From: a virus
Taxonomy: Duplodnaviria; Caudoviricetes
DNA: 48,382 bases
IMG/VR virus record: IMGVR_UViG_3300027612_000008
Location: 1 to 48,382 of that record
Strand: one strand, 5' to 3'
Made by a program: the position numbers and the translations under genes. Position 1 is the first letter of the stretch. Each line of letters starts with the position of its first letter. Positions 1 through 48,382 of this stretch are shown here, piece by piece. A model generated the notes under the pieces. That model had not been told where the DNA came from and ran no database searches. It was given only the letters and a program-made list of their open reading frames with translations.

Positions 1-157
1 TGCGTTCGGCGATTTGGTCAACGGATAACCAGCACGTCCCGCCATTGTGCGAAAACGCGTGGATGATGCCCCAAATAGCGCGGTGCGGCCAATCAATTTC
101 CCGGATGCGTTGGATTGATTCCGGGATGATGATGAATGTTTTGGTGAAATCATCCAT
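1..157 (-). CDS. Replication initiator protein, 5' part (runs off window)
   Basis: Begins MDDFTKTFIIIPESIQRI like 22820-23557 and 46489-47223. Confidence 0.8.
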   Translation of the reverse strand, partial: MDDFTKTFIIIPESIQRIREIDWPHRAIWGIIHAFSHNGGTCWLSVDQIAER

Positions 158-160
158 GAA

Positions 161-394
161 TCAATTTTGGTTCATGGTTTCAATTTGGTCCATGATTGCC
201 GCCGCCAAATCCGCAATGAATCGTTTGCGTTCCTTATTCGGTTTCCCTTCGGACATCGCGAACGCATGGCGCATCATTTGCGCCGGTTCGCGTTTCATCC
301 ATCGCGAAATTGTGTGTTCGGCAACGCCTAATGATTCGGCCAACGATTTTTGCGAACCATAGTGTTTGACGACAAATTTGTTCAATGGTTTCAT
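161..394 (-). CDS. Cro-like HTH transcriptional regulator
   Basis: YGSQKSLAESLGVAEHTISRW helix-turn-helix pattern; directly upstream of rep; three copies. Confidence 0.75.
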   Translation of the reverse strand: MKPLNKFVVKHYGSQKSLAESLGVAEHTISRWMKREPAQMMRHAFAMSEGKPNKERKRFIADLAAAIMDQIETMNQN

Positions 395-684
395 GACGTT
401 TGAATTTTGAATTCGGTTTTGATGATGCCAATTCGCAACGATGTTTTTCGTTCTTCGATTTGCTGAAATCGGTTCAATTTGGTTCGAAATTCGGCCGTCA
501 ATTTGGCAACCTCATCGGCCGCCAATCCCGAAACGGACGTGTTCAAATCAACGGCGTTTTGTGCATGTCCGGCACGATGCGCCAACGCCATCAATTCCCG
601 TTTCAATCGCATTTGGTCCAAAACCAAATCCGCCAATTCCCGTTTTTTTCGCCGGTTGATTCCGGCCCAATCAATTTCAATCAT
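391..684 (-). CDS. Hypothetical coiled-coil protein (97 aa)
   Basis: ATGA-coupled at both ends; homologs at 23791 and 47457. Confidence 0.75.
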   Translation of the reverse strand: MIEIDWAGINRRKKRELADLVLDQMRLKRELMALAHRAGHAQNAVDLNTSVSGLAADEVAKLTAEFRTKLNRFQQIEERKTSLRIGIIKTEFKIQTS

Positions 685-1148
685 GGCGCAACGATTTCAA
701 CGGATGGCGGAAAACCATTTTCGCCCGATTTGACGGCGTGAAACGTCATGTTGTGTGTGCTGGCATATTTCCACCGCACAACCTCAATCATGCCCCACAA
801 AAAACGCCGTTCAACCATTTCAATTGGAATGCGTTTCGGCAACGCTGGTTTCCCGGTTTTCCGGTTCACATTGTCCGAATCTTTGCGTGGTGGCAAATCG
901 TCCTTTGTTCCTACGGCGACAAATTCACCATTTTCACCCGGCAAAACCGGGCCGGTTTCGCGCGCCAATTCATCGTTGGACATGTCACGCAAATTCAAAC
1001 TTTTGACGCGCCATTGTACCGCCTCACTTGTGCGGCCCAAAAATTCGGCAATGTCATTGTAGGAAACGCCATGCGCCCACATCATCGTCAATTTTGCGTC
1101 ATCGGATGCGGTCCAACGTTTGTTGTGGTTCGGTGGTGTGGTTTTCAT
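681..1148 (-). CDS. Myb/GcrA-like N-terminal HTH protein
   Basis: RWTASDDAKL...SYNDIAEFLGRTSEAVQWR pattern; three copies. Confidence 0.65.
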   Translation of the reverse strand: MKTTPPNHNKRWTASDDAKLTMMWAHGVSYNDIAEFLGRTSEAVQWRVKSLNLRDMSNDELARETGPVLPGENGEFVAVGTKDDLPPRKDSDNVNRKTGKPALPKRIPIEMVERRFLWGMIEVVRWKYASTHNMTFHAVKSGENGFPPSVEIVAP

Positions 1149-1576
1149 TGGAACGTGTTTTTGTGGTGAATGGCTAATTGTTCGGCCATGTCCATGAATT
1201 GTTTGGCGGATTCGCGGATTGCGTCCGGATGGATTTTCCCGGAACCAGCCATGGCGGCATTGGCAATGGCGGCATCAATGGCCCAACGGGCCATCACGGA
1301 TGAATTCGGGCGTTGGTTACTGGTTCCGCCGGCGTTGGGTTTTGGACCTTGCGACCATTCCGGATTTTGAATGCGAACGCCGGGAAAACCATTGCGTTCA
1401 CCATGGATTGAAACGGCAACCTCATCGTTCAATTTGTACCATGGCGATTCCGATTTGGCGTTGGCCATTCCGGTTGTTCCATCGTCAAATTTGAGTTCGA
1501 ACGCATACATGCGGCCCGTTTTGCCGTCCCAATCAAATTGTGGTCGGCGCGTCATTTGAACAATTCGTTTTTTCAT
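1145..1576 (-). CDS. Conserved early protein, possibly OB-fold ssDNA-binding
   Basis: Start reassigned to MKKRIV (ATGA overlap); beta-rich N-domain FELKFDDG...ANAKSESPWY conserved with 24557-25000; function inferred. Confidence 0.55.
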   Translation of the reverse strand: MKKRIVQMTRRPQFDWDGKTGRMYAFELKFDDGTTGMANAKSESPWYKLNDEVAVSIHGERNGFPGVRIQNPEWSQGPKPNAGGTSNQRPNSSVMARWAIDAAIANAAMAGSGKIHPDAIRESAKQFMDMAEQLAIHHKNTFQ

Positions 1577-1800
1577 CGTGGTTGGTTTGATGTCTGATTT
1601 GGTTGCGCCCAAAGTGACGCACGGAAACGGGCCATGACGGCGTTGAAATCGTTTTGACGTGGTTTCGGTTGCCGGCGTTCGCCAAATGGCGTAAATGCGG
1701 CCCGAATCGCCGCCGGGCATGTTCCATGGATGGTTGCATACCATTCATAAAAATCCGCACATGGATTTTCAGGGAATGATGTTGATTTGATGTGTGCCAT
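1573..1800 (-). CDS. Cassette gene Z, hypothetical (75 aa, MAHIKSTSF)
   Basis: Homolog at 25308-25508; follows GC hairpin junction. Confidence 0.7.
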   Translation of the reverse strand: MAHIKSTSFPENPCADFYEWYATIHGTCPAAIRAAFTPFGERRQPKPRQNDFNAVMARFRASLWAQPNQTSNQPR

Positions 1801-2255: not shown

Positions 2256-2630
2256 GGCGTTCGCGATTGTTTCGCCGTGGCGATTTTTGCCAATGAGTTT
2301 TTCAACCATTTTGTCAAAGGCAACCGAATTGGCATCCGTGGCCGGCTTGAATTCACCGGTTTTCGATTTGTAGTCGTGCAAACATGTCCATGAACCAATT
2401 TCGTTCACGCCAACGGACAACAACCACGTCCGGCCGTCTTTGTGCGTCAATTTGAACCACATGCCGCCATTGCCGTAAACGTGGCGATTTGTAACAATGG
2501 TGTCCAAAGTGAATTGCGGCAATGATGCCAATGCCAAAACGTTTGAAAATGCGGTTTGCGAATATCCGCATGCCGCTTCAATGGTGAACGTGTAATTCAT
2601 CGCGATGTGGTGTTGTTGTGCGCTGGTCAT
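2253..2630 (-). CDS. Cassette gene X, hypothetical (125 aa, MTSAQ)
   Basis: Near-identical homolog at 31839-32216 in a different slot; start after CA-rich leader. Confidence 0.8.
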   Translation of the reverse strand: MTSAQQHHIAMNYTFTIEAACGYSQTAFSNVLALASLPQFTLDTIVTNRHVYGNGGMWFKLTHKDGRTWLLSVGVNEIGSWTCLHDYKSKTGEFKPATDANSVAFDKMVEKLIGKNRHGETIANA

Positions 2631-2661
2631 GGTGATGTGTGTTGTGTGTGTGTGTTGTTTG

Positions 2662-2722
2662 ATGGCGTAAATGTACACAAAGATTCATTCCGCGCAATAC
2701 TTTCGTGAACTTTTTTTTTCAT
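2662..2722 (-). promoter_or_regulatory. Repeated early-type promoter, copy 1 of 6
   Basis: A-tract, TTG-N19-TACATTTA, resembling Bacteroidota -33 TTG / -7 TAnnTTTG. Confidence 0.75.
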
Positions 2723-2738
2723 TCCACGATTCCGGCCC

Positions 2739-2772
2739 AAAAAAACCGGTGACCACCACGGCCACCGGTTAC
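2739..2772 (-). terminator. Rho-independent terminator after lysis module
   Basis: AACCGGTGGCC-loop-GGTCACCGGTT followed by T-run; conserved at 26054. Confidence 0.8.
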
Positions 2773-2817
2773 CAAACACACAACAACGTGTTCACCAAAA
2801 CACGTCCGCAAATATCG

Positions 2818-3048
2818 TCAATCCCTTTCGAACATGGACAATGAAATTGGAATGATGGCAATGGCACACATCACCACCGCCGGCCACGTCACGCCGTGTT
2901 CAACGATGTCCGCACATGCCGTGGTTGCAATCAATCCACCAATGGTCCGTTTTGCGGACCATCGTTGCAAATCACCCTTTGTTTTGAATGCTTCGGACAC
3001 ATCCAAATTGCCGGCAACCTTCGCAAACCATCCCGGCAACGCCATCAC
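2818..3048 (-). CDS. Small two-TM membrane protein (holin-like)
   Basis: Two hydrophobic segments; in lysis module; conserved at 26132. Confidence 0.6.
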   Translation of the reverse strand: MMALPGWFAKVAGNLDVSEAFKTKGDLQRWSAKRTIGGLIATTACADIVEHGVTWPAVVMCAIAIIPISLSMFERD

Positions 3049-3221
3049 AAATCGTTTGGTGGCGTTTTCCGTTTGTCACCGGTGACGGCCGTAATGATTC
3101 GGTCCAAGTATTCAAAAACGCCGTGTGCCGGTGATTCGGACGGCAACAAATTGACAATGACTTTTGCGAATGTCAATGCGGCCAAAACCAGTTCGGCCCA
3201 ATTTTCGGTGATGAATTCCAT
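3045..3221 (-). CDS. Small membrane protein (holin-like, 58 aa)
   Basis: MEFITENWAELVLAALTFAKVIV; conserved start in copy 2. Confidence 0.6.
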   Translation of the reverse strand: MEFITENWAELVLAALTFAKVIVNLLPSESPAHGVFEYLDRIITAVTGDKRKTPPNDL

Positions 3222-3225
3222 GGCA

Positions 3226-3654
3226 TCAAAGTAACCACGAATATTTTGATTGAACGTCAAACGATGGACATGCCTTCGCGGCAAATTCGTTGTGGCCGTG
3301 CAACCTCATCGGCCCGAAAACCATGCGCAACGATTTCACCAAATGAATCATGGTCATTTCCTGATGTTCGGTCATCGTGTCGAATGGTTCACCATCGCGC
3401 ATGCCGCCAACGTAGCAAATGCCAATTGAATCATGATTGTGGCCGCGAACATGCGCGCCGATTTCATGCACCGGCCGCCCGAATTCCAACGTGCCATCGC
3501 GTTTGATGACGTAATGGTATCCCACATCCCGCCAACCATTGCCGCGCGGTTTTGGGGCCGTGTGCCACAATCGGATTTGTTCAACGCCAATGTCCATGGA
3601 TTCGGGCGTGGCCGAACAATGAATGATGATGCGGTTGATTGCGCGCATGGTCAT
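3226..3654 (-). CDS. Endolysin, N-acetylmuramoyl-L-alanine amidase (T7 lysozyme-like Amidase_2)
   Basis: IIIHCSAT, GYHYVI, GAHV.GHN..SIGICYVGG, GHNEF..KACPSF motifs. Confidence 0.93.
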   Translation of the reverse strand: MTMRAINRIIIHCSATPESMDIGVEQIRLWHTAPKPRGNGWRDVGYHYVIKRDGTLEFGRPVHEIGAHVRGHNHDSIGICYVGGMRDGEPFDTMTEHQEMTMIHLVKSLRMVFGPMRLHGHNEFAAKACPSFDVQSKYSWLL

Positions 3655-3869
3655 CGAATGGAATTGGCCGCCAACAAATTTCGAATTTCGTGGATGCCGT
3701 CCACAACTTCGCGAACCATCAATTTCAAATCGGAATTGTCGGATTCCAAACGTTTGATTCGTTCGTGTTGCCGGGCCAAAATCGTTTGCGTTTTGACATG
3801 CTGGTGAACCAGCGCACCGGCGTTCGCCAATGCCATTGCGACCAATGACCAAATTGTTGGTGAATCCAT
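3651..3869 (-). CDS. Single-TM plus coiled-coil protein (holin/XhlA-like)
   Basis: N-terminal hydrophobic helix then heptads; coupled to the amidase. Confidence 0.6.
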   Translation of the reverse strand: MDSPTIWSLVAMALANAGALVHQHVKTQTILARQHERIKRLESDNSDLKLMVREVVDGIHEIRNLLAANSIR

Positions 3870-3878
3870 GACCGCAAA

Positions 3879-4115
3879 TTACGAATCACCGGCGGCCAAT
3901 GAATCCAACAACGATGTCAATTCGGGCGGCATGGACCATTCCGTTTCGCCGGCTGATTTCAACGCGGCGTGATGGTCACGCACCAATTGAATTCCCGAAA
4001 CCATTTTTTTGAAAAATCCCACGCCGTACCAATCCCACATCATCCCGCAATTGCGTTGTTTGTGAACCGGCCACCGGGAATTGATTTCGTGTGTTGCGCC
4101 ATCGTCAATGTTCAT
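3879..4115 (-). CDS. Hypothetical, possible tail fibre chaperone (78 aa)
   Basis: Starts immediately after the fibre gene stop; conserved at 27179. Confidence 0.6.
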   Translation of the reverse strand: MNIDDGATHEINSRWPVHKQRNCGMMWDWYGVGFFKKMVSGIQLVRDHHAALKSAGETEWSMPPELTSLLDSLAAGDS

Positions 4116-4116
4116 G

Positions 4117-7100
4117 TCAAATGTTGATTGTGATTGTGATTGTATCGTTGGTGCCATCCGGCAAATCAAACTTTCCACATTCGATTTCCTCGCCTGAAAA
4201 ATCGCCCGTATTTGAACCCAAAACCACTAATTCATTGGCATTCGAAAATTGGTCGCGGAATGTCAATTGAACGGATGCAATGGTTATTGCCGTGTCAAAT
4301 TCCAATTGGCCCCAATCGGTGCCGGTTGGGCTGGAAATTGTCCACCAATCGGTGCCGGTTTCATTCGCGTCAAAACATTTCCAAAATTCGCGGCCGGGAT
4401 ATGAATAACCCCACGTCACAACCAAACCGGCCAATGATGTTGCCGATGTGAGTGCGGCGGACGGATGTTTTGTGCCGGTGGCGTTGGAACCTTCAAACAT
4501 GTCAATATTGTATGCCATCACATATCGTGAACCCGGTTCGCCGCCATCGTGTTTGACCTGAAATCGCCAATGCGTAAACGTTCGCGATGGTGTCACGTCA
4601 AATGTTTCGATGGTTTCAAGGGATTGAAATTTACCAGCATCTACGCCAACAATGCGCATTTCGTAATCGGTCGCAATGGATGTTGGAACAACAAATGACA
4701 CGTTGCCCGATGAATCAATTGAAACCGGGTTGGCGGTGATTTCGGTGCCGCTTGAATCGTAAATGGCCCCCACATACGTTCGCCCGTTGACGTGATTTGA
4801 AATCGTCGCCGTGGCGTTTGCGCCTTGCTGATATGAGCCGGACAAACCCGAAACAACCGGCGCGGCCGTGGTCAACAATCCCGATGTGATGCCGGTTTCG
4901 TCAACTTTGAAAATGGTGGTTCCATCGCCGTTTTTGATTTCGAATGATTGCCCGGTTTCGTTGTCGTCGTAATCCAAAACCACCACCACGTTTCCATTGG
5001 ACCGAATTTCAAGGTCCGCCGGTTGATTCGGCAACGAATTATTTGGTCCGATGATGGATGTGCCGCCGCTGGTGAACGTCAATCCACCGGAACCGATGAT
5101 GGCACCATTGGACGTGAACGTTCCACCGCACGTCAAATCGGATGTGAACGTGGCCGAACCTTGCGCGGAAAATGAACCCAACGTTGAAATTGTCCCAATG
5201 GCGGAAATTGCGCCGGTCGATAAAATGGACGCAAACGTTGGCGTGGATGAAACCGCAATGGTCAACGTGTCCGTGGCCGCGTTGGTGGTGACCACGGCGT
5301 TCGTTCCGGCGGCAATGGTCAACGTGTCCGTGGATGAATCCGCCACAATGGATGATTGACCGGACACGGCGATTGTTTCAAATGCGTTGCCGCTGGTGCC
5401 ACCACCACCGCCGGATGATTCGCCGTTGTTTCGCACCGCCATCACGCCGTTTGACGCGGCGTGGATGACAAACGCGGCCGCCAAAACCATTCCGGATGCC
5501 GGTTCGGTTGTGGTCCATGTTCCCGCCGTGGTTTGCGACACAAACAACACGTCACCATCCGTGAATCCGGACAACGAAACGCCGCGAATGGTTCCCCTAT
5601 CGAACACGACACCATCCGCGCCATTGGCAATGGCTTCGGCCGTCACGCCGATGAAATAACGTGCGTCAATTGTGCCGTCCGCAATCATTGGCGCGATGGT
5701 TTTGCGACCGGATGCGCCCAACGTCCCGTTGACGTACACCGGAACGCCGGCGGCGATGCTGGTGCCGGTATTGTTCCGACAAATCCACCAATCATTTTCC
5801 ATGTCCACGGCCGCCGTTCCGATTCCCAAAACGAACGCGGTGCGGTCACTATCAAAAACCATTTCGCCGTTGGCCGGTGTCAATTCCGCATTCGTAGCAA
5901 ATGACAAACGTTCGGCAATGGCAACGTTCAACGCCTCGACCACATCGGCAAACGTGGCCATGCCCGAAACGCCCAACCGGCCCACCACATCCAATTCAAA
6001 TGACGGCGATGAGGTGTTGACACCAACGCGGTTGCCGCGTGAATCGCCGGTGGCAAAAATGGCGGTGGATGAACCGGTGGATTCATCTTGCAAATCCACC
6101 ACAAATTTTCCGGGCGATTGTTCCGAAATCGAAACGGCCGTGTTGCCTGAATTGGATGTGAACGCCGCCGTGGTTTGCGTCAATGACATTTCCAAACCAT
6201 CCGTTTTTCCATCGGCATAAACAACCTTCGTGATGGTGTTGCCGGGGTCATCTTTGGGTTGAAACGTTCCCAGCAAATACGACAATTTGTTGGTCAACGA
6301 AACAACGGATGCCGCATTGGAATTGGTGGTTGATTCCACCGAATCCAAATTGACGGATTGTGTGATGGTGATGAAATCGGTTTTGGTTTGAATGGCCGCC
6401 GTGGTTGATTCCAAATTGGCGATGGCCGTGCCGGCGGTGCCAACGGCGTTTGATAATCCGTTGGAATCGTTGCCCGGATTGAAACCGCCGGGCGTGACCT
6501 CATCGGACACGTTTTTTTTGCCGGTGGTGGCTTCGGTGATGTTGGTGGTGTCACGTTGAATTCGGGCCGCCTCAAAATCCAAAATTCGCGCATTGGTGTT
6601 CATCGTGAATTCCGTGAACAAAAACACGTCCGAATCAATTTCAATCGTGTTCAACATGGTCACCAACGCGCCGATGGTGTTTGGTGCGGCCACATGGATT
6701 TGACCGGCCCAAATCGGAATTGGATTGCGCATGGTGCGCAAAATTTCATTCACGGCCAATCGGTTAATTCCAACGCCCGTCCCGGTGTAATTGGACGAAT
6801 TCCAACCGGCGGCATCCGTCCAATCCGAACCATCCCAAATGGACAAAACGCCGCGTTCGGAATCGCTGATTCGGTCGCCCAACGTCACCACGTCATCAAT
6901 TTTGATTGCGCGGTTCACCTCATCGCCAATTGCCGAAAATGTGATTTCGGAACCGCCGCCGTCCACGTCCGCACGATATGCCCGAACGTTTTGCGCAAAG
7001 TATGCCGGCGCATCCGCCACGTTCAAACCATCGTCAATGGCCACAAACGTTCCGTCATTGGTCACCAAATAAATTGACAACGTGATTTCCAACCCGGATT

Positions 7101-8457
7101 GCGTCGAAGGCAATGCGCCCGTTGTAAACGTCAATCCAATGTTTTGATTTGTGCCGTTGTTGCGGTCGAATGGTTCGGACAAAAACGTTGTGGTTCCGCT
7201 GGTGCCGGACCAGTCCAACGGCCCGTAATTGGCCAAATCATACGTTCCAACCGAACCATCATCAAATCCGAAATTTCCTTGTCCACCAAACGTGATGGCG
7301 GCCGTGGCGTATTGCGAACCGCATTTGAATTGAACGCCAATCCCAATGCGACCAACGCGTTCATCCGCGTCCGAAATTCCAAATGCCGGGTCCACGCCCG
7401 GCAACGTGACGTTCACCACGCCAACAAAATTGATGAGTTGCCCGGCAAAGTAGTCAACGCCAAAATCCGTGATGGCCGTTGTGAACGCGTTTTGGGCTAT
7501 ATACGGCGACCAAACCACCGGCGCATTGCCGTTGTATTCGCGCGTTCGTTTTGCTTCGCTTAATGGCGGCGTAAATCGTTTCTCATTGCCGGCCATTTGG
7601 ACCAAATCGGTTCCCGTGGCCAACAACGTTTCCGTGGCCGTGCTGGTCCCTACAAAATCGCCGTTGATGTCGTAATTATGAAACGCAATCGCCGTGTTGT
7701 TTTGATACGCGCCAATTGGCACAAAGTAGAAAACGCCACCGGCCAAAAACAACCGGGCGTTTTGCGATTTGCACACGTTCCGCACCACGTCAAATGCCGT
7801 CATGAATTCCCGGTTGCCGTCATCGTCGATGGCCCAAAACGATTCATGATGCGTTCGGATGTTTTCCATGAACCGATTTGTCACGGACATGTTCGTTGCC
7901 TTAAAATCGTCGGCCACTCGAACGAAATCGTCATTGGTTTCGAACGGATGCAACGCCCGTGTTTTGGCCAACGCGTTCACCAAATGTTCAATCAACGTGG
8001 CGTGGCCGGTGTACGCCGTGGCCGGGTCCGATTTGTATGCAATCCGTTTCAAATTGCCCAAATCATCGGATGCGGTCAACATGGATGAACGCGGCAATGG
8101 TTCGTTCATCATGGTCCATTGGTCGGATAACAAAACGCCGAACCATTCCAATTGATACGAACCGCCAACCAATTTGTGAATGGTGACCGAAAATCGCGAT
8201 TCGGCGGCCGTGGCCAACGCATTGATGAACGCCGTGTGTGCGGCGGTTTGTTCAATGAATTCGAATTGAACGGACGAACCAATGACCGGTTGAAAAACGT
8301 TTTCCGTGTCGCCTTTGTAAGACAAGGAAAACCCGGATGCGCCCAACGTGAATTCCGTTGGTTCCGTGCCGGCAAATTCGGAATCATGGATGTTGATTCG
8401 CCATTGTTGCCCGAACAAATCCGTGAATTCCGCGAAATATTTTGTTGCGTTTGCCAT
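4117..8457 (-). CDS. Tail tip/fibre (receptor-binding) protein, 1446 aa
   Basis: Downstream of tape measure; G/T/S-rich beta repeats; C-terminal discoidin-like beta domain (inferred). Confidence 0.8.
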   Translation of the reverse strand: MANATKYFAEFTDLFGQQWRINIHDSEFAGTEPTEFTLGASGFSLSYKGDTENVFQPVIGSSVQFEFIEQTAAHTAFINALATAAESRFSVTIHKLVGGSYQLEWFGVLLSDQWTMMNEPLPRSSMLTASDDLGNLKRIAYKSDPATAYTGHATLIEHLVNALAKTRALHPFETNDDFVRVADDFKATNMSVTNRFMENIRTHHESFWAIDDDGNREFMTAFDVVRNVCKSQNARLFLAGGVFYFVPIGAYQNNTAIAFHNYDINGDFVGTSTATETLLATGTDLVQMAGNEKRFTPPLSEAKRTREYNGNAPVVWSPYIAQNAFTTAITDFGVDYFAGQLINFVGVVNVTLPGVDPAFGISDADERVGRIGIGVQFKCGSQYATAAITFGGQGNFGFDDGSVGTYDLANYGPLDWSGTSGTTTFLSEPFDRNNGTNQNIGLTFTTGALPSTQSGLEITLSIYLVTNDGTFVAIDDGLNVADAPAYFAQNVRAYRADVDGGGSEITFSAIGDEVNRAIKIDDVVTLGDRISDSERGVLSIWDGSDWTDAAGWNSSNYTGTGVGINRLAVNEILRTMRNPIPIWAGQIHVAAPNTIGALVTMLNTIEIDSDVFLFTEFTMNTNARILDFEAARIQRDTTNITEATTGKKNVSDEVTPGGFNPGNDSNGLSNAVGTAGTAIANLESTTAAIQTKTDFITITQSVNLDSVESTTNSNAASVVSLTNKLSYLLGTFQPKDDPGNTITKVVYADGKTDGLEMSLTQTTAAFTSNSGNTAVSISEQSPGKFVVDLQDESTGSSTAIFATGDSRGNRVGVNTSSPSFELDVVGRLGVSGMATFADVVEALNVAIAERLSFATNAELTPANGEMVFDSDRTAFVLGIGTAAVDMENDWWICRNNTGTSIAAGVPVYVNGTLGASGRKTIAPMIADGTIDARYFIGVTAEAIANGADGVVFDRGTIRGVSLSGFTDGDVLFVSQTTAGTWTTTEPASGMVLAAAFVIHAASNGVMAVRNNGESSGGGGGTSGNAFETIAVSGQSSIVADSSTDTLTIAAGTNAVVTTNAATDTLTIAVSSTPTFASILSTGAISAIGTISTLGSFSAQGSATFTSDLTCGGTFTSNGAIIGSGGLTFTSGGTSIIGPNNSLPNQPADLEIRSNGNVVVVLDYDDNETGQSFEIKNGDGTTIFKVDETGITSGLLTTAAPVVSGLSGSYQQGANATATISNHVNGRTYVGAIYDSSGTEITANPVSIDSSGNVSFVVPTSIATDYEMRIVGVDAGKFQSLETIETFDVTPSRTFTHWRFQVKHDGGEPGSRYVMAYNIDMFEGSNATGTKHPSAALTSATSLAGLVVTWGYSYPGREFWKCFDANETGTDWWTISSPTGTDWGQLEFDTAITIASVQLTFRDQFSNANELVVLGSNTGDFSGEEIECGKFDLPDGTNDTITITINI

Positions 8458-8480
8458 GCCTGAAATTTCGGGAATTCATC

Positions 8481-8517
8481 GCAAACAAAAACGCCACGCG
8501 AAATCGCATGGCGTTTG
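8481..8517 (-). terminator. Rho-independent terminator closing cassette slot 2
   Basis: AAACGCCATGCGATTTCGCGTGGCGTTTTTGTTT; conserved at 31783. Confidence 0.8.
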
Positions 8518-8536
8518 ATGCTGGTGGTTTCATCTA

Positions 8537-39900: not shown

Positions 39901-39923
39901 GATTCAATCGCCACAATCCGTCA

Positions 39924-41876
39924 TCACGTCAATTGGTCGGCGAATGCCAACGCCGCCGGTTGCCGCAATGCGAAATCCCAAAACGCGTTGATGTGGATTT
40001 TGATTTGACCGGTGTTCGCCAACGTGTACGGGTCAATCAAAATGTCCGGCGAACCGAACCGGGCCAAAATTCCCGCTTGACGGAAATTGCCGAACAACAT
40101 TTGTCCGCCAACGCCGGTGCCATTGTCCAACGTATCGTCGGCCAAATACGGCGTGGCTAATGGACGATACCCGGCAAATTGGCCGTTGTTCCACAACGCC
40201 GAAACGGATGCAACGGCGGCCTCAGAACGGGACAATTGGAATGCCTTTGGTGACATGACGAAAACCGAACCGGCCAAATCCGCACCATCCGCCAAAACCG
40301 CCGATTCCATGGAATAAACCAACGCCGCATTCAATTCATCGTTTGCGTCATCGGTGCCAATGATGTTGATGGTTGAACCATCGGTTGTTGCAATGATGTC
40401 GGCGAATGCGCTTGTATCAATGCGCGCGTTCATCGCGGCCACCAAATCGCCCAAAATCAACCGGTCCACATCGGAACCACCTTGCAACGCCAATTGTTTT
40501 GAATACGCGGTGTACGCCGTCACGCGTTCGGGCGTTAACGTCACCTCATCCAATTGCAAACCGGCCGCCGCTGATGCCGCAATTTCGGTTTTTTCCGCCA
40601 ACGTTGATTTCGTTTTGATGCGCGGGAATTTCAAATTCCCGGTGGCGTTGTTGATGGTGGTGATGCCGGTTTGTTCAATCACCGATGGCGCGCGCAACGC
40701 CTCAATCACGCCGGGAACGTTCGTGGGAACGAATCCACCACCACCAGCATCACCGCCGGCCGTGGTTGCGGTCATTTGGTCCGTTTCGCCGGCCCGGTAG
40801 ATGGCAAACGATGGAATGCCAACGTTGCCGTCCATTTCCAATCCACGGCGCGCGTTGTCTTTGCGCGCTTCGGCGGTCCACTCGGCTTCGACACCATCCA
40901 AACGGCCATTGGTGGCAATTTGTTTGATGGCGCGCGACAATGACCACGTTTGATTCATGCGTTCGATTTCGCGGCGTTCACCGGCGTTCATCGTGGTCCC
41001 GACATGGACGGCCGCTTGCATTTTTTCCTGATTCGCCCGGTGACGAATTTTTTGGTCCAATCGTTCAACCTCGGTGACGAGAAAATCGCAACGTTGGTTT
41101 TCGGCTTCGGACAATGTGGTTCCGTTTTCGTCGGATTTGCGGATGATTTCCGCATGTTCGGCAAAGTATTTTTCCCGAACCGCCTTCAATTCATTCAAAT
41201 TCATTTGTTCAAATGGTTTGGTTTGCAATTTATGATTTTCCGCCGGTTCGGCGGCATGTTCACGTTCAATGGTTTTGGTGGTGTCGCTGGTGCTGGTTTC
41301 CGGTTCCGTTGATTCATCCGTGGGCGCGTTTTGGGCCTCGAAAAATGAACGAACGTGAATGGATGTTGTAGGGTACGCGCCGTAGGTAACCGCGCTCAAA
41401 TCGTGCAAAGATTTCACGCGCGAAACCACGCGAACGCCGTTTTCGTCGGGTTGCCAACCATCGCGTTCAACCTTTGCGGCAAATGACATTTGGTCAATGT
41501 CACCGCGTTGAATCAATTGGTAAATTTCACGGCCGCGTTCGGTGTTTGCCAACGTGGCGCGCATGTACAATCCATCATCGCGTTTTTCAATGGTCATGGT
41601 GCCATTGCTGGTCCGCGCCAATGGCAATCCCTGATGATTGATGAGAAATCGCACGTCATCGTTCAACGCGCCATCAAACGCATCACGCGCGATGCGTTCC
41701 CTAAATGGTCCAATGTCGGTGATGGTATCAAATACAACCGCGATGCCTTCAACCACCATTTCGCCGGATTCACCGCGTTCGATGGCGTGGATTTTGGCCA
41801 CGCGCGTTTCCACATCGTCGCCATGCATTGCGCGCAATGTCAATTCATGCGCATTCGTTTCGTTTTCCTGATTCAT
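39924..41876 (-). CDS. Prohead protease-major capsid fusion (copy 2)
   Basis: 650 aa homolog of 16260-18212. Confidence 0.93.
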   Translation of the reverse strand: MNQENETNAHELTLRAMHGDDVETRVAKIHAIERGESGEMVVEGIAVVFDTITDIGPFRERIARDAFDGALNDDVRFLINHQGLPLARTSNGTMTIEKRDDGLYMRATLANTERGREIYQLIQRGDIDQMSFAAKVERDGWQPDENGVRVVSRVKSLHDLSAVTYGAYPTTSIHVRSFFEAQNAPTDESTEPETSTSDTTKTIEREHAAEPAENHKLQTKPFEQMNLNELKAVREKYFAEHAEIIRKSDENGTTLSEAENQRCDFLVTEVERLDQKIRHRANQEKMQAAVHVGTTMNAGERREIERMNQTWSLSRAIKQIATNGRLDGVEAEWTAEARKDNARRGLEMDGNVGIPSFAIYRAGETDQMTATTAGGDAGGGGFVPTNVPGVIEALRAPSVIEQTGITTINNATGNLKFPRIKTKSTLAEKTEIAASAAAGLQLDEVTLTPERVTAYTAYSKQLALQGGSDVDRLILGDLVAAMNARIDTSAFADIIATTDGSTINIIGTDDANDELNAALVYSMESAVLADGADLAGSVFVMSPKAFQLSRSEAAVASVSALWNNGQFAGYRPLATPYLADDTLDNGTGVGGQMLFGNFRQAGILARFGSPDILIDPYTLANTGQIKIHINAFWDFALRQPAALAFADQLT

Positions 41877-43078
41877 TGAATGTTGTTTTCGGACATTTTG
41901 CGCGAATAATCTTCAAACGATTCCAAATCAATTTGATTGATTTGCAACGTGTGAATTTCGCCGCCGTTGCCGTCAATTGGATTCATGTTTTCCGTTGCGC
42001 GCACCTCGTTTCGGTTCATCACGCCGGCGGCCAACATGGCCGTGAAATATTCCGCGCGCGTTTTCAAATCGCCACGCGTCAATTCGCCCAAATCATGCCG
42101 GGAATAAATTTGCGGCCGTTCAAACGAAAAAATCAATTTTCGGTTAATTTCCGCCTCAATCCGCCGCACCCATGGCACAATTGTATGATTGCGGAACATG
42201 ATTTGTTGTTGTTCAACGTTGTTATAAGTTTGGTCCGCGTCAACGCCAACCATGGCCGCCGGAACGCTGAAAATGGTGCAAATTTCGCGGTTGCCCAATT
42301 TCCGGGTTTGTATAAATTGGGCCTCATCGGCCGTGATGGCAATGCGATTGTGACGAACGCCGAACGGCAACAAAATCGTTTTTGGACCGCCATTCGTTTC
42401 ACGCCGCCACAATTCAACCAATTTTTCCCTTTGTTCGTTGGTCATCGGCTGGTCCGACGAAATCACGCCGGTCAATTGACCGCCGTTGGCAAAATAGTTG
42501 GCACCGAAATTTTGGGCCGCCATTGAAACGCCCAAATTTTCCGCATGTAGGCGAATCGGCGATTTGCGGTGCATGTTGCCCACAACCAACATGTTTTCGG
42601 GCAAAACGGCCCCAAAACCGCGAATTTGGTAAAATAATTCGCCTTCGCTGGTGTGCTTCGATTCCACGTCATCACGATGAACCAAACGCAACGCGGTTGG
42701 CCGTCCATTCGTGGCGCGTTCGATGTGTGCAAATGCCAATCCATTGATGACCGCCATTGCAATGAACGTTTCCCAAAATTCAAACGCGGTTTGTTCCGGG
42801 TTGGGCTGGTCCGAAATCAACAAATTGGTTGGATGGTCCGGCAATGGTGCCACGCGGTTTCCGGTGCGCTCATACACGTTCACGCCCAATGACGCAATGG
42901 TTGACGCGATGCGGTATGTGCAAGCATAAACGGCCGCCAATGACAATGCCGTTTGTTCGTTGACGTTAACGCCGGCGGTGGACATTGGGAAAATTCCCAT
43001 TTCCGCCGCAATGGTGTTTGGGTTGAACCAACCGGTCCGTGAACGAACGGCATTCGCCAATTTTTGAATTCGGTTCAT
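41873..43078 (-). CDS. Portal protein (copy 2)
   Basis: 401 aa homolog of 18209-19414. Confidence 0.96.
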   Translation of the reverse strand: MNRIQKLANAVRSRTGWFNPNTIAAEMGIFPMSTAGVNVNEQTALSLAAVYACTYRIASTIASLGVNVYERTGNRVAPLPDHPTNLLISDQPNPEQTAFEFWETFIAMAVINGLAFAHIERATNGRPTALRLVHRDDVESKHTSEGELFYQIRGFGAVLPENMLVVGNMHRKSPIRLHAENLGVSMAAQNFGANYFANGGQLTGVISSDQPMTNEQREKLVELWRRETNGGPKTILLPFGVRHNRIAITADEAQFIQTRKLGNREICTIFSVPAAMVGVDADQTYNNVEQQQIMFRNHTIVPWVRRIEAEINRKLIFSFERPQIYSRHDLGELTRGDLKTRAEYFTAMLAAGVMNRNEVRATENMNPIDGNGGEIHTLQINQIDLESFEDYSRKMSENNIQ

Positions 43079-43096
43079 GGTGCAATTTAGTCATTT

Positions 43097-44815
43097 TCAC
43101 AACGAAACGATGGTGAACATGTCATCGGTCAATTGTGGTTGCGCCATGCGTTTCATGCGCTCACCAATGGCCATGCACAACGCAACAATTGGGTCAATTT
43201 TTCCGCCGGATTTTTGTTTGTCCGGTTTAATGTTTCCGGCCGGGTCAACGCGCAATTCCACATTTTGCAACGCCCATTTCAAAACCGGGTCACCATCAAA
43301 TTTCAACCGGCCGGTTCGAATCAAAATTTCCAATTCCTTTGCCGGTGGTGACATGCTGATGAACCCTTGTCCGTAGGGAACAACCGGGCATCCATCATCC
43401 GTCAAATCAATGGCAATTTGGGTTGAATTGTAGCGGTCAAACGCCACGCATTTCACATCGTGACGGGCCATCAAACACGATTCGTCAAATTCCGGTCCGG
43501 TTGGCGTGGCATAAACGCCGGACAAAATGCGCCGGATTGACTGATAATCGGTCACGTTTCCATCCGTCACATGCATGTTCGGCAATTGCTGGAATTGGCC
43601 GTAAATGTGGCCGGAATCGGCTTGCAACGCGCGGTTGATTGCGTCCGAAGGCATGAAATAATGACCTCGAACAACCAATGTGTCATCAATCGGAAAAACC
43701 AACATCAATGCCGTCATGTCGGAAACCGAAGCAAGGTCCAAACCGGCCCAACATTCCGCACCGGTCAAATCCGGCGTGGCGGTGTCCACGCATGCATCAA
43801 ACACGTCCGATTCAATCCAAGTTTTCGAAGATTGCACCCACAAATTGCAATGTTTGGTTTTGAATTCCGTGATGCGCGAACCGCCCATATTTCGCGCTTG
43901 CTGGAACTGGTTTCGCAACAATTTCGTTGAAATCGTTTCGCCCAAACTTGGATTTGCCTTTGCCCAAACCGATTCATCCGCCCAATCATCGTCCGCGTCC
44001 AATTCGTAAATGATGGCAAATTGGGAATCATCGTGTTTGATTCCGTCCAAAATTTGTTTGACGGATTTTTGCATTTCGTGACACGGGCCGCCAATGTTGA
44101 ATCCGGCGGTGGTGATTGTGACGTGCAACGGATTTTTCCGGGATTGCATGCCCGAACGCAACACGTTCGAAACCTCATCGGTGGCGTGGGCATGGTATTC
44201 ATCCACGATGGCCAAATGTGGGTTTGTGCCGTCCATGGTTTGTTTGTCCGCGCTCAAATACGTCAACCGCGCATTGATTTTTGGAAACAAAATGTCATGT
44301 TTTCGCGGTTCCAAATATTTTCGCAACGGCGTTTGTGCCGTTGCCATTCGGAACGTTTCGTTGAATCCGATTTTCGCTTGTTCGCGTTTCGTGGCGGCAA
44401 AGTAAATTTCGGCGGCGTGTTCCATGTCCATCACCAGTCCGGCCAACGCCATTCCGGCCAACAACGTTGTTTTCCCGTTTTTCCGGCCAACCGCAAGATA
44501 TGCGTAATTGAACCGGCGCGTTCCATCGTCCCGAAACCAGCCATACAAGTTCCACAAAACGAATTGTTGCCATGGCAACGGAACGAATGGTTCATTCGCA
44601 AACGCGCCCATGGTATGCCGCAAAAATTTCGTGAAAAAATCCATGTAGGCGCGCGCCACATTCGGTTTGAACACAATGCCGCGTTCCTCGCATTCGTCCA
44701 AATCGCGCAAATACCTTTGGCATGCCGCGCGGCAATATTTCCCGGCGATGATTTTGCCCGAAACCACGTCCCGCGCGTACTGGTGCGCCACATCGTTTTT
44801 CAGTTCATCACCCAT
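43097..44815 (-). CDS. terL: Terminase large subunit (copy 2)
   Basis: All ATPase and nuclease motifs intact. Confidence 0.97.
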   Translation of the reverse strand: MGDELKNDVAHQYARDVVSGKIIAGKYCRAACQRYLRDLDECEERGIVFKPNVARAYMDFFTKFLRHTMGAFANEPFVPLPWQQFVLWNLYGWFRDDGTRRFNYAYLAVGRKNGKTTLLAGMALAGLVMDMEHAAEIYFAATKREQAKIGFNETFRMATAQTPLRKYLEPRKHDILFPKINARLTYLSADKQTMDGTNPHLAIVDEYHAHATDEVSNVLRSGMQSRKNPLHVTITTAGFNIGGPCHEMQKSVKQILDGIKHDDSQFAIIYELDADDDWADESVWAKANPSLGETISTKLLRNQFQQARNMGGSRITEFKTKHCNLWVQSSKTWIESDVFDACVDTATPDLTGAECWAGLDLASVSDMTALMLVFPIDDTLVVRGHYFMPSDAINRALQADSGHIYGQFQQLPNMHVTDGNVTDYQSIRRILSGVYATPTGPEFDESCLMARHDVKCVAFDRYNSTQIAIDLTDDGCPVVPYGQGFISMSPPAKELEILIRTGRLKFDGDPVLKWALQNVELRVDPAGNIKPDKQKSGGKIDPIVALCMAIGERMKRMAQPQLTDDMFTIVSL

Positions 44816-45140
44816 CGCGCCGGGACAAAAGTTCGGTCAATTCATCCGTGTCATCGGTGCCGGCAATTTTGCGTTCAATGTATTGTACCAATGCTTGTTT
44901 TCTTAAACGCGTTTCCTTCAATTGTTGCCATTCCGGCCACGCGCGCGAATACATGTCGCCGGATTTGCCGCGAACTTGATACGTTGTGCCATTTTTGTTC
45001 ACGAACGTTTGCAGGTCCGTTTCTTCGATGATGACACATGCCAACGTTGAAATCAATTCCCGAACGCCGGGCGTGATTTCCGTTCGCGATTCATAATCGG
45101 CCAATAATTGGCCGGTCATACGTTTTTGTTTTGCATTCAT
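44808..45140 (-). CDS. terS: Terminase small subunit (copy 2)
   Basis: Homolog of 21144-21476. Confidence 0.8.
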   Translation of the reverse strand: MNAKQKRMTGQLLADYESRTEITPGVRELISTLACVIIEETDLQTFVNKNGTTYQVRGKSGDMYSRAWPEWQQLKETRLRKQALVQYIERKIAGTDDTDELTELLSRRDG

Positions 45141-45204
45141 GTTCGGTTTATTTCAATACAAAATGACCATTTCGGGCCGGTTCCCCTTTTGGTTTGGGAC
45201 AACA

Positions 45205-45235
45205 TTTGTTCGCCCCCTTAAACGGCGGCGATGGA
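45205..45235. other. Putative cos packaging site (second)
   Basis: Same AAACGGCGGCGATGGA core as 21556-21571. Confidence 0.55.
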
Positions 45236-45273
45236 CCGGGAACGCCAAATGGTTTTCCGGACCCCATACCCGG

Positions 45274-45585
45274 TCACGATTTGGTGTTGTTGTTTGACTG
45301 ATATTGGATGCGTTCCAATGCGGATTTTCGGTTGTGGCATGACGTACAAAGTGATTGCCAATTGGACGAATCCCAAAATTCACCACCAGCGCGAACGGGC
45401 GTGATGTGGTCAACCACATTGGCCCAATCACCGCATTCATTGCACGTTGGATGTTTTCGTTTGAAGCCATCACGCGCACGTTTCCACGCGGCCGTGAAAT
45501 ATCGTTTGTCTTGTGGCGTTGGCCGGTCGGATTTGCCATGTGATGACCATGGATTGGGCGTTGCCTTGCGATTGATTGACGGCAT
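45274..45585 (-). CDS. HNH endonuclease gp74-like
   Basis: CNEC...VVDHITP...LCTSCHNRK. Confidence 0.92.
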   Translation of the reverse strand: MPSINRKATPNPWSSHGKSDRPTPQDKRYFTAAWKRARDGFKRKHPTCNECGDWANVVDHITPVRAGGEFWDSSNWQSLCTSCHNRKSALERIQYQSNNNTKS

Positions 45586-45595
45586 GGTTTGTTTT

Positions 45596-45877
45596 TTATG
45601 CGTGATTGATTCGGCCCAAAACATCGTCATGAACCGCGCCCAACCAATGCATTTGTTCAAAGGTCATTGGCTTGTGTTCAACCACCATCACGCCAAATTG
45701 ATTGCGCGTGGTTTCCATTTGCGCCGCCACAATGAATGCAATGATGTTTGATGCGATTTGTTCCCGTTCGGCTGGTGTGAATTCATCACCGCGCCGAATT
45801 TCCGCCACGCGCGAAAATGGTTTTTCGTAGTTCGGCAACGAATCAATCCGTTTCCGTTGTGGTGTCTTTTGTTTCAT
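45596..45877 (-). CDS. Hypothetical protein
   Basis: Homolog of 21933-22211; start reassigned to MKQKT. Confidence 0.75.
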   Translation of the reverse strand: MKQKTPQRKRIDSLPNYEKPFSRVAEIRRGDEFTPAEREQIASNIIAFIVAAQMETTRNQFGVMVVEHKPMTFEQMHWLGAVHDDVLGRINHA

Positions 45878-46514
45878 GGTTGAATGGTTTGGTGATGGCC
45901 AACATTTCCGATTCGGACAATTGAATTGAACCGCCCAATTCCGCAATGGTTTTTTTGGGCCGTGGCAAATCCAACGATTTCACAAATTCCGAAAATCGTT
46001 TGACATCGGCCGGTGATGGTCGGTCGCTGGTTTGCGTTTTCAATTCGTTGTGGGCGCGTTCGTGGTGCGCATTTTCGCGAAACGTGGTGGAGTATTGCGA
46101 TTCATAATCACGCAACGCGGCGATGAGTGACGGCGTATCAAATCGGCCATACATGGTAATTTCACCGCGCCGAATCATCGTCATCACGCGCGCGAATTCC
46201 TCAATTTTCAACGTTGGGAACAATTCAACCACGTCATCAATTGCCGTTTGCAAATCGTCTTGATTTTGCCATGAACGCGAATCCGGCAAACGAACGGCGC
46301 GCCATGTCCGGACCAGTTCGGCCAACAAAATCATTTTTGTTGCGGCGCGGTCAATGCTCAATCCGGCCGTAATTGGCAAACCAGCATCAAACAATGATTT
46401 TGGCGATTGATTCGCGATGACATCGGCAACGCCATTTTTCAAAATTTCCAATTGTGCCGTTTGGCGTTCGCGCCGGGCGGCAATTATTTCATTTCGTGGC
46501 CCATTGGAACGCAT
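45843..46514 (-). CDS. Replication-associated protein (DUF6633-like)
   Basis: Homolog of 22180-22845; start uncertain. Confidence 0.55.
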   Translation of the reverse strand: MRSNGPRNEIIAARRERQTAQLEILKNGVADVIANQSPKSLFDAGLPITAGLSIDRAATKMILLAELVRTWRAVRLPDSRSWQNQDDLQTAIDDVVELFPTLKIEEFARVMTMIRRGEITMYGRFDTPSLIAALRDYESQYSTTFRENAHHERAHNELKTQTSDRPSPADVKRFSEFVKSLDLPRPKKTIAELGGSIQLSESEMLAITKPFNHETKDTTTETD

Positions 46515-47223
46515 TTCCCGCGTCGAATGGTTTGTTTTTGTCAACTTGTGCATTTGGTGTGTTTTTGCTTCGACGTACCCAATTCCGCGCGGTTGATTTC
46601 CAACAAACGATTTTGCCCGTTCGCCGTTTCCAACCGACCGATTCCCAATAATCAAAAAACGCGTCCGCGTCATTGGAATTCAATTCAGCGAAATATGCCC
46701 GGCATGCTTCAATTGATTCCGGTTTTTGCCCGGATGCGCCGGTTGATTTTGCCATGGATTTTTTGGGAACCAATTTTTTTTCGTCCGGATTTGAATTTTG
46801 TTCTGTTTTTTTTCTTAAACTATTTTCTATGTGCGCGGTTTTCCGCTCAACTGGTGCGCGGTTTTCCGCTTGTCTTGTGCGCGGTTTTCCGCTTGTCTGA
46901 TGCGCGGCGGATTGCACATGTGCGGAATTCCGCGCATGTTCGGGAACCTCAAATTTGCCCGTGGTCCGCAACATGCGGCGGTGACCATTGTATGAAACAA
47001 CCTCAATCAATTCAAGGTCAATCAATTTTTGAATCATGGATGATGTTTGCCGGCGTTTGCGGTGGATGCGTTCGGCGATTTGGTCAACGGATAACCAGCA
47101 CGTCCCGCCATTGTGCGAAAACGCGTGGATGATGCCCCAAATAGCGCGGTGCGGCCAATCAATTTCCCGGATGCGTTGGATTGATTCCGGGATTATGATG
47201 AATGTTTTGGTGAAATCATCCAT
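46489..47223 (-). CDS. Phage replication initiator
   Basis: Homolog of 22820-23557. Confidence 0.8.
   Translation of the reverse strand: MDDFTKTFIIIPESIQRIREIDWPHRAIWGIIHAFSHNGGTCWLSVDQIAERIHRKRRQTSSMIQKLIDLELIEVVSYNGHRRMLRTTGKFEVPEHARNSAHVQSAAHQTSGKPRTRQAENRAPVERKTAHIENSLRKKTEQNSNPDEKKLVPKKSMAKSTGASGQKPESIEACRAYFAELNSNDADAFFDYWESVGWKRRTGKIVCWKSTARNWVRRSKNTPNAQVDKNKPFDAGNAFQWATK
46772..46938. promoter_or_regulatory. Putative replication origin (iterons plus AT-rich tract)
   Basis: Three exact GTGCGCGGTTTTCCGCT units at 23-bp period plus two variants. Confidence 0.75.
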
Positions 47224-47226
47224 GAA

Positions 47227-47460
47227 TCAATTTTGGTTCATGGTTTCAATTTGGTCCATGATTGCCGCCGCCAAATCCGCAATGAATCGTTTGCGTTCCT
47301 TGTTCGATTTCCCTTCGGACATCGCGAACGCATGGCGCATCATTTGCGCCGGTTCGCGTTTCATCCATCGCGAAATTGTGTGTTCGGCCACGCCTAATGA
47401 TTCGGCCAACGATTTTTGCGAACCATAGTGTTTGACCACAAATTTGTTCAATGGTTTCAT
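47227..47460 (-). CDS. Cro-like HTH regulator (copy 3)
   Basis: One residue differs from 161-394. Confidence 0.75.
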   Translation of the reverse strand: MKPLNKFVVKHYGSQKSLAESLGVAEHTISRWMKREPAQMMRHAFAMSEGKSNKERKRFIADLAAAIMDQIETMNQN

Positions 47461-47750
47461 GACGTTTGAATGATGAATTCGTTTCTGATGATGTCGCAAC
47501 GCAACGATGATTTTGCCCGTTCGTTTTGATGGTATTGATTCAATTTTGTTCGAAATTCCATTTCCAATTTGGCAACCTCATCGGCCGCCAATCCTGAAAC
47601 GGACGTGTTCAAATCAACCGCGTTTTGGGCATGACCAGCGCGCCGGGCCAATTCCATCAATTCGCGTTTCAATCGCATTTGTTCCAAAATCAATTCGCCT
47701 AATTGGCGTTTGGTTGACAAATTGATTTGTCGCCAATCAATTTTCATCAT
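47457..47750 (-). CDS. Hypothetical coiled-coil protein (copy 3)
   Basis: Third distinct allele of 391-684. Confidence 0.75.
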   Translation of the reverse strand: MMKIDWRQINLSTKRQLGELILEQMRLKRELMELARRAGHAQNAVDLNTSVSGLAADEVAKLEMEFRTKLNQYHQNERAKSSLRCDIIRNEFIIQTS

Positions 47751-48223
47751 GGCGCAACGATTTCAACGGATGGCGGAAAACCATTTTCGCCCGATTTGAC
47801 GGCGTGAAACGTCATGTTGTGTGTGCTGGCATATTTCCACCGCACAACCTCAATCAAACCCCACAAAAAACGCCGTTCAACCATTTCAATTGGAACGCGT
47901 TTCGGCAACGCTGGTTTTCCGGTTTGCCCGTTCACATTGTCCGAATCTTTGCGTGGTGGCAAATCGTCCTTTGTTCCAACGGCAATCATTTCACCATTTT
48001 CACCGGGCAAAACCGGGCCGGTTTCCAATGCCAAATCATCGTTGGCATCCGGATATTTTGAACGCAATGCCAATTGTGCAACGCGCCATTGAATCGTGCC
48101 GGGTGTGCGTTGCAAAAATTCGGCAATGTCATTGTAAGAAACGCCATGCGCCCACATCATGGTCAATTTTGCGTCATCGGATGCGGTCCAACGTTTGTTG
48201 TGGTTGGCTGGTGTGGTTTTCAT
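47747..48223 (-). CDS. Myb/GcrA-like HTH protein (copy 3)
   Basis: Homolog of 681-1148 with a different recognition-helix region. Confidence 0.65.
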   Translation of the reverse strand: MKTTPANHNKRWTASDDAKLTMMWAHGVSYNDIAEFLQRTPGTIQWRVAQLALRSKYPDANDDLALETGPVLPGENGEMIAVGTKDDLPPRKDSDNVNGQTGKPALPKRVPIEMVERRFLWGLIEVVRWKYASTHNMTFHAVKSGENGFPPSVEIVAP

Positions 48224-48382
48224 TGAAACGTGTTTTTGTGGTGAATGGCTAATTGTTCGGCCATGTCCATGAATTGTTTTGCGGATTCGCGGATTGCGTC
48301 CGGATGGATTTTTCCGGAACCAGCCATGGCGGCATTGGCAATGGCGGCATCAATGGCCCAACGTGCCATCACGGATGAATTC
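48220..48382 (-). CDS. Conserved early protein, 3' end (runs off window)
   Basis: Matches 1145-1307. Confidence 0.7.
   Translation of the reverse strand, partial: NSSVMARWAIDAAIANAAMAGSGKIHPDAIRESAKQFMDMAEQLAIHHKNTFQ

Follow-up and report, generated by a model that had tools for sequence, protein, structure and literature searches.

What removes nearly all copies of three dinucleotides from a phage genome? The question is raised by IMG/VR record IMGVR_UViG_3300027612_000008 (Duplodnaviria; Caudoviricetes), of which we analyzed positions 1-48,382, a stretch of 48,382 nt that is called the window here and is always meant at its full length. A first, sequence-only reading of this DNA had noted that AG, CT and TA are rare in it, and had proposed either selection against host motifs containing AG/CT or a context-specific mutation or modification process. 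Our results showed that this phage and its close relatives have shed about 80-87% of AG/CT and TA. The probable cause of the purge is prolonged selection by adenine-methylating restriction enzymes of Types I/IIB and IIG/III, of which the host population would carry a large and continually reshuffled repertoire.

AG, CT and TA are depleted throughout the window

Over the whole window and both strands, the dinucleotide odds ratio (rho) was 0.13 for AG/CT and 0.20 for TA; it was raised for AA/TT (1.59), CG (1.56), AT (1.36) and CA/TG (1.29), and CC stood at 1.01. The count that first drew attention to the pattern, 3 AG, 6 CT and 5 TA in bases 1-600, was exact, and the depletion was uniform from bin to bin (25 bins of 2 kb; AG 0.05-0.16, CT 0.08-0.21, TA 0.09-0.28) and stronger than had been noted. 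AG was low in all 16 flanking contexts (0.02-0.35). Codon choice had been described as collapsed, and the 44 genes analyzed (12,566 codons) bear this out, with TTG for 746 of 853 Leu codons, GAA at 651/714, AAA at 410/461, CAA at 423/465 and AGR for 17 of 694 Arg codons; TGA ended 40 of the 44 genes and TAG none. Codon usage alone does not explain the loss: by codon position, with the codon junction given last, rho was 0.14/0.16/0.19 for AG, 0.14/0.08/0.09 for CT and 0.35/0.11/0.16 for TA, and in the 10,852 bases outside the 44 genes (small open reading frames (ORFs) included) it was 0.12, 0.15 and 0.20, respectively.

CTAG, AGCT and GATC, none of which had been seen by eye, numbered zero in the whole window. 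About 10 copies each of AGCT and CTAG were expected, so their absence follows mostly from the dinucleotide loss; GATC, with 434 expected over both strands from trimers, is a separate hole. The suggestion that this is not general palindrome avoidance held only in part. GGCC (405), CCGG (501), GCGC (380), AATT (660) and GAATTC (60) were indeed abundant, and GTAC, TTAA and TATA were still present, but classical 6-bp palindromes were purged as well (observed against expected, pooled over the window and the related loci L005, L006 and L086, both strands: GGCGCC 0/64, CACGTG 0/39, GGGCCC 0/20, GTGCAC 0/16, GACGTC 2/37, CCCGGG 2/28), and GRCGYC and CACGTG were absent from the window. The loss of orthodox Type II palindromes is thus real, yet it is a minor share of the signature, and palindromic 4-6-mers do not account for the loss of AG, CT and TA.

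The depletion reflects selection on double-stranded DNA and reaches protein sequence

A process that mutates or modifies a single base is not supported, because both bases of each dinucleotide yield and the substitutions varied. A stood before G at 2 of 604 NGx-G junctions, and G followed A in 47 of 1,391 Lys, Glu and Gln codons when the next base was not G; C preceded T in 29 of 490 cases, and T after C also yields. Where AG could not be avoided, NAA and NAG codons were used 129 and 109 times (NAG 109/238). Comparison of the two strains that are likely joined in the window (see below) showed that, at four-fold sites, avoidable AG, CT and TA were conserved at 48 of 109 sites versus 2,834 of 3,755 others, and that the losses were transitions and transversions alike.

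Protein sequence has changed as well. Lys, Glu or Gln followed by Val, Ala, Asp, Glu or Gly, which forces AG, occurred 238 times versus 602 expected (0.40), with ratios of 0.94-1.02 for the same residues at distances 2-4. Of 120 terminase clusters, the 10 at 71-100% identity had a dipeptide ratio of 0.29-0.55, and the remaining 110 had one of 0.79-1.14. The clusters with dipeptide loss formed one clade (SH-aLRT 99 in a quick tree of 39 rows). The depletion is therefore selection acting on double-stranded DNA and reaching protein sequence.

The idea of a context-specific mutation or repair bias (Vsr-like T-to-C change in CTAG steps, deamination or m6A (N6-methyladenine) mutation), or of mimicry of the host genome, draws on the facts that CTAG is made up of the steps CT, TA and AG and that avoidable sites turn over faster. 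The yielding of both bases, the return of NAG where AG is unavoidable, the mixture of transitions and transversions and the unchanged CC all speak against it; such a bias also predicts no partner base 7-11 bp away, as described below, and the 25 genome-collection loci with related terminases had rho AG of 0.75-1.12. We regard this explanation as highly improbable, and its mutational form is already largely refuted.

Selection at the level of mRNA or translation (tRNA supply, or an RNase acting at AG, CU or UA) would suit the collapsed codon usage and the position of all recognised genes on one strand. It fails on strand symmetry: on the coding strand AG was as depleted as its complement CT, which was also true across junctions and outside the curated genes, the spaced partner is an adenine of the opposite strand, and there are no tRNA genes. 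A sequencing artefact is countered by intact long ORFs, by matching contigs of a public run and by the dipeptide loss common to 10 terminase clusters down to 71% identity. With strand symmetry and replication in relatives against them, these two ideas are refuted, and we give them next to no credence.

AG and TA are lost where a T follows 7-11 bp downstream

A spacing test was made in the window only, with repeats masked and a frame-matched baseline; values are observed/expected. After 741 AG, T was found at distances 7 to 11 in 100/168, 68/176, 58/173, 62/168 and 99/176 cases, as against 200/176, 184/173, 163/173 and 173/168 at the control distances 5, 6, 12 and 13. After 1,096 TA, the values at distances 7 to 11 were 152/248, 150/264, 138/267, 196/248 and 228/264. 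No comparable dip was found upstream of AG (0.87-1.05). The dip at 7-11 was seen separately in both strains and in L005, L006 and L086, and 12 distant loci had none (class ratios 0.93-1.09 at distances 8-11). It was also present in purely synonymous T/C choices after coding-strand AG, in which T was taken in 7 of 49 cases at distances 7-10 versus 33 of 68 at six other distances (p=1.4e-4). Conversely, the AG rate with 0, 1 and 2 Ts in the 7-11 window was 0.30, 0.11 and 0.066 (control window 0.14-0.22), and TA stood at 0.61 if neither of its adenines had a partner and at 0.14 if both did.

Bipartite holes also occurred apart from these dinucleotides. Among trimer pairs free of AG, CT and TA, 56 of 10,484 lay at or below 0.15 at gaps of 3-8, and 44 of these were of the A...T form (both orientations counted); there were none at gaps 9, 10, 14-16 and 20-22, and none in five control loci. 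GA-N8-TC had 8 sites in the window versus 152-199 expected, GCA-N6-TGC, GAC-N6-GTC and GGA-N6-TCC had zero, and the missing words also included GCA-N6-TGY and AAC-N5-GGG. In holes free of AG and TA both halves were sequence-specific; for AG and TA halves the partner context was broad and differed between lineages. In addition, CCC/GGG stood at 0.43 of Markov expectation in the window, and the holes AAC-N5-GGG, CAC-N5-GGC and ACA-N6-GGG resemble m4C/m6A (m4C, N4-methylcytosine) Type I sites; a partner search with CCC/GGG for m4C-type halves yielded a weak signal only.

The bipartite A...T component, which the sequence-only reading had missed, explains the greater part of the TA loss and a large share of the AG loss. 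The full signature consists of this component and a contiguous NNNNAG component, on top of ordinary palindrome loss. AGs without a partner were bimodal by their upstream 4-mer, with 29 of 115 hexamers at zero and others up to 1.19, and this division into absent and tolerated NNNNAG hexamers is the pattern that Type IIG motifs would give. A bias toward one orientation would be expected of Type III targets; strand skews exist, but coding constraints may contribute to them.

Among the motif families proposed at first, those with AG at a methylated adenine fared well, the NNNNAG component being like Type IIG/III targets. Avoidance of the DarTG target TNTC is rejected, as TNTC words were at expectation (TTTC 847 vs 836, TGTC 342 vs 290, TATC 95 vs 98 expected).

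The signature resembles Type I and Type IIG targets

We compared the signature with motifs tallied by hand from alphabetical samples of the Blow 2016 supplement (PMC4752239), namely the first 90 of 199 matches for S3 and, for S4, part 1 of 10 together with places 15-44 of 135. In these samples, the A-to-T distance was 7-11 in 74 of 75 m6A Type I motifs, and AG or TA lay at the methylated adenine in 35 of the 75 (AG in 24, TA in 11 more). The AG motifs spanned 7-11 (mean 8.8) and the TA motifs 7-9 (mean 8.0), distance ranges that match those of the phage. Four AG-AG motifs in the tally have a distance of 8 or 9, at which the clade holds 0/15 and 0/14 (double-counted). TA halves made up 6 of 34 in Bacteroidota versus 6 of 116 elsewhere (p=0.03), and a methylated A followed by G was found in 24 of 39 m6A Type IIG rows.

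The likeness to targets of Type I restriction-modification (HsdRMS; also IIB and m4C/m6A Type I) lies in two opposite-strand adenines 7-11 bp apart with the top-strand A first, and in missing words such as GCA-N6-TGY and AAC-N5-GGG that share the Type I form. Unlike the site of one enzyme, the partner half here is far less specific, and AG/TA halves are hit more than the general motif list predicts. With contiguous m6A motifs of Type IIG, III or BREX-like systems, the signature shares A then G at the methylated adenine and the absence of many NNNNAG words while others are tolerated; a one-strand bias beyond that explicable by coding was not clearly shown.

Orthodox Type II avoidance, as described in the parts of Rusinov 2018 used here (PMC6286503), likewise removes host target words, and GATC, GRCGYC, CACGTG and other palindromes are gone here; the main signal, however, is Type I spacing plus IIG-like ends, acts at the dinucleotide level and alters protein. 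The escape of Murciavirus from Mme2I is similar in that a Type I enzyme is evaded by losing an AG-containing bipartite site, but the account in PMC12455610 concerns one motif in one first-injected region, whereas the present loss is genome-wide and involves many motifs. In the literature searched, mostly open-access papers, no report of such a purge was found.

A reshuffling repertoire of restriction enzymes as the probable cause

We infer that restriction enzymes are the agent and that they are many. Two classes of target would be involved: bipartite Type I/IIB-like sites with two methylated adenines on opposite strands 7-11 bp apart and AG or TA in one half, and contiguous Type IIG/III-like sites ending in NNNNAG. 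Host enzymes would swap recognition domains often, faster than single sites can be removed, and for that reason the phage, which has no recognisable anti-restriction gene, would shed the shared AG/TA core instead, synonymously where the code permits and by amino-acid change elsewhere. AG or TA would be retained mainly where no partner T follows.

In a skewed toy model (artificial peptide, one AG/TA half per site), AG-other pairs fell to 0.25-0.28 and TA-other pairs to 0.46-0.68; AG-TA pairs were spared and AA, AT and CG were raised, as in the phage. Uniform pools gave no purge, and therefore a skew toward AG/TA must be assumed. For the same reason, removability under the genetic code is rejected as a sufficient cause, although it may help. 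Of the adenine steps, AG/CT and TA cost a terminase least to lose: in outgroups, the terminase minima per 100 codons were 5-7 for AG/CT and 3-5 for TA versus 10-19 for GA/TC, CA/TG, AA/TT and AC/GT, with AT at 5-9 (frameshifted L140 excluded).

Several points weigh against a repertoire of many enzymes. The skewed toy model reached rho AG of 0.57-0.65 only, and uniform pools reproduced the general A...T dip of the sister phages with no AG/TA purge. Loss of the partner T extends to nearly every flanking context and the three-base partner pattern is not shared between lineages (Spearman 0.004, n=50), as one loose enzyme would also give. Other-other A...T pairs of the clade, taken together, show no depletion (0.96-1.08). 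Because two of the pooled strains are 86-89% alike, the pooled counts overstate independence. Among the tallied Type I motifs, 40 of 75 have no AG or TA fixed at the methylated adenine (PMC4752239), and the Rusinov 2018 survey, in the sections used here, saw neither Type I nor IIG sites avoided (PMC6286503). Neither the host nor its methylome and enzymes were identified, the genome scan yielding distant prophages only and CRISPR spacers not being searched. Finally, several uncharacterised cassette genes of the phage could be anti-restriction proteins.

Some of these points would be met by one undescribed defence with a loose bipartite target, an AG/TA adenine plus almost any opposite-strand adenine 7-11 bp away, working beside ordinary Type II/IIG enzymes. 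Mean depletion at distances 7 to 11 was near-equal in two lineage sets (0.60, 0.39, 0.34, 0.37 and 0.56 vs 0.61, 0.38, 0.26, 0.39 and 0.69), nearly all partner contexts are covered, other-other pairs are spared, GA-N8-TC with its four fixed bases is nearly gone, and a uniform pool fails to reproduce the skew. Yet within a lineage the partner contexts vary (chi2 15-46 on 9 degrees of freedom at distances 7-11 in the window, though the control distance 14 also gave 33), the distances spanned by AG and TA halves agree with those of the Type I motifs tallied from Blow 2016, many bipartite holes are sharply specific, and for so frequent a target each host genome would have to carry thousands of methylated sites. 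We consider a single loose defence unlikely. A bolder version, which is doubtful, is that a marine Bacteroidota carries an adenine-directed defence, a spacer-flexible or hyper-shuffled Type I-like system, that reads little more than AG/TA and any opposite-strand adenine 7-11 bp away, and that the clade escaped it by rewriting genome and proteome; if true, the phage genome predicts the target of such a defence before the system is known.

Another reading is that the phage avoids being methylated, because m6A acquired in one host would trigger modification-dependent (Type IV) restriction in the next or hinder replication. It yields the same geometry, the sites being set by the methylases. Most lineages lack GATC, and no phage methylase is recognisable. 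This account needs an extra component, however, where restriction of unmethylated sites suffices, and lineages differ in GATC loss (L126 has 18 sites in 2.5 kb) but share the AG/TA purge. We think it very unlikely.

The purge is confined to one clade

Among 213 loci, the 20 with the lowest rho AG (0.13-0.20) were the strains of the window and four related lineages; the next values were 0.33 and 0.49, and the rest were at least 0.67. L126 and L127 (84-85% terminase identity) keep normal GATC yet share the AG/TA purge; GATC loss and the purge are therefore separate.

Sister phages at 56-64% terminase identity have the same A...T dip (0.73-0.88; L007 0.58) with the purge absent. In L130-L140, L142, L008 and L010, the dip at 8-10 bp was 0.73-0.91 with no AG/TA purge, and in L142 AG-AG at distance 9 was 4/85. 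L007 (57% terminase identity, 61% GC) had general A...T depletion of 0.58 at 7-11 bp, deepest for AA halves, and rho AG of 0.85; it represents another answer to the same kind of pressure. Farther away, L017 (41% terminase identity, 4.2 kb) had rho AG of 0.33 and a milder AG...T dip, possibly of independent origin, L046 had rho AG of 0.49 and little dip, and the distant locus L168 had rho CG of 0.12. No close cultured phage was found, terminase identity being at most 37%.

The host is likely a member of the Bacteroidota

A TTG-N19-TAnnTTTA element in six copies resembles the Bacteroidota promoter, for which PMC6847099 quotes the consensus TTTG/TANNTTTG; its last base is off consensus. No Shine-Dalgarno core was found upstream of 51 starts (0/51), which AG loss alone would also cause, and GGAG occurred 8 times over both strands. 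A phage may be able to bear an AG purge only if its host manages without Shine-Dalgarno pairing. Of the genome matches, 33 of 35 were labelled Bacteroidota, at about 40% identity; the best (51%, on a 1.5 kb contig) was in a Pontimonas metagenome-assembled genome. Together, these data point to a host that is likely a member of the Bacteroidota.

Implications for restriction-site avoidance

The published view, in the parts of Rusinov 2018 used here (PMC6286503), is that phages purge the sites of orthodox Type II enzymes and leave those of Type I and IIG enzymes, which change specificity too fast; the passages used from two later papers repeat it, calling Type I avoidance uncommon (PMC12455610) and describing purging for Type II sites (PMC12707154). 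The present clade looks like the opposite solution, in which the shared core of shifting targets is purged and the price is paid in codons and amino acids. It would be a variant of restriction-site avoidance, unusual in depth, enzyme class and reach into the proteome. If this is right, the phage genome is a negative image of the methylome of its host population, giving a testable list of motifs and a route to host assignment, and loss of the K/E/Q-[VADEG] dipeptides offers a protein-only marker for other cases. Sister clades that took a different route under the same spacing pressure provide a natural comparison.

Structure and gene content of the window

Two copies of the gene set of an HK97-type tailed phage, 86-89% identical in DNA, lie on the minus strand of the window, which also has a 1.3-kb end overlap (Table 1). 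The alleles were at about 22-30 and 45-50 fold depth in X1, the one public run holding most of the window. Many of the contigs that carry related terminases stop at 22-24 kb. Two strains of a ~23.5 kb phage that occurred together were therefore likely merged by the assembler into one chimeric sequence, the window. A second public run (X2) covers small conserved parts of the window only and gives no indication of habitat. Another assembly (L004, L084) closes the same pair as a 46,981-base circle, which stands beside the chimera reading from the allele depths of X1.

The HK97 module order HNH-TerS-TerL-portal-protease/capsid-connector-tail tube-tape measure is present, with the terminase small subunit (TerS) assigned by position only. 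In agreement with the sequence-only reading, no methylase or modification gene was matched in Pfam or PHROGs (42 + 20 ORFs) or NCBIfam (28 ORFs), several small ORFs being without assignment; integrase, polymerase and tRNA genes were not found in the window either.

Table 1. Features of the window and their coordinates
Feature	Position	Strand	Further copies and remarks
First copy of gene set (lysis, 1446-aa protein, tape measure, tail, head, portal, terminase, HNH, replication initiator)	2607..24539	-	
Second copy of gene set	25928..48243	-	86-89% DNA identity; likely a strain present alongside the first and fused to it in assembly
End overlap	1..1307	-	90.7% like 47067-48382
Terminase large subunit (TerL)	19433..21151	-	K/E/Q-[VADEG] dipeptides 8 vs 28 expected
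Terminase large subunit, second copy	43097..44815	-	94% identical protein
Portal protein	18209..19414	-	41873-43078
Fused prohead protease and major capsid protein	16260..18212	-	39924-41876
Tape measure protein	9025..11472	-	32626-35073
1446-aa protein, no family match	4117..8457	-	27417-31757; likely tail tip, role inferred by position
ORF containing amidase endolysin	3226..3852	-	26541-26954
HNH endonuclease	21610..21936	-	Adjoins terminase genes
Replication initiator, O-like helix-turn-helix	22820..23557	-	46489-47223
Promoter-like repeat TTG-N19-TAnnTTTA	2668..2697	-	8966-8995, 16136-16165, 25982-26011, 32568-32597, 39732-39761; before small cassette genes
Small cassette gene, no family match	8692..8961	-	Repeats at 25708-25977, 32294-32563
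Other small cassettes	2253-2630, 15880-16131, 39044-39430		
Cassette regions	2244-2662, 8627-9022, 15449-16190, 25641-26038, 31830-32622, 39044-39786		

The cassette ORFs had no family match, were not strongly acidic as a DNA mimic would be, and had Atlas leads below 0.9 or none. Standing behind the promoter-like repeat and an A/C-rich leader, these small genes form moron-like cassettes that are shuffled among three genomic slots in the two strains.

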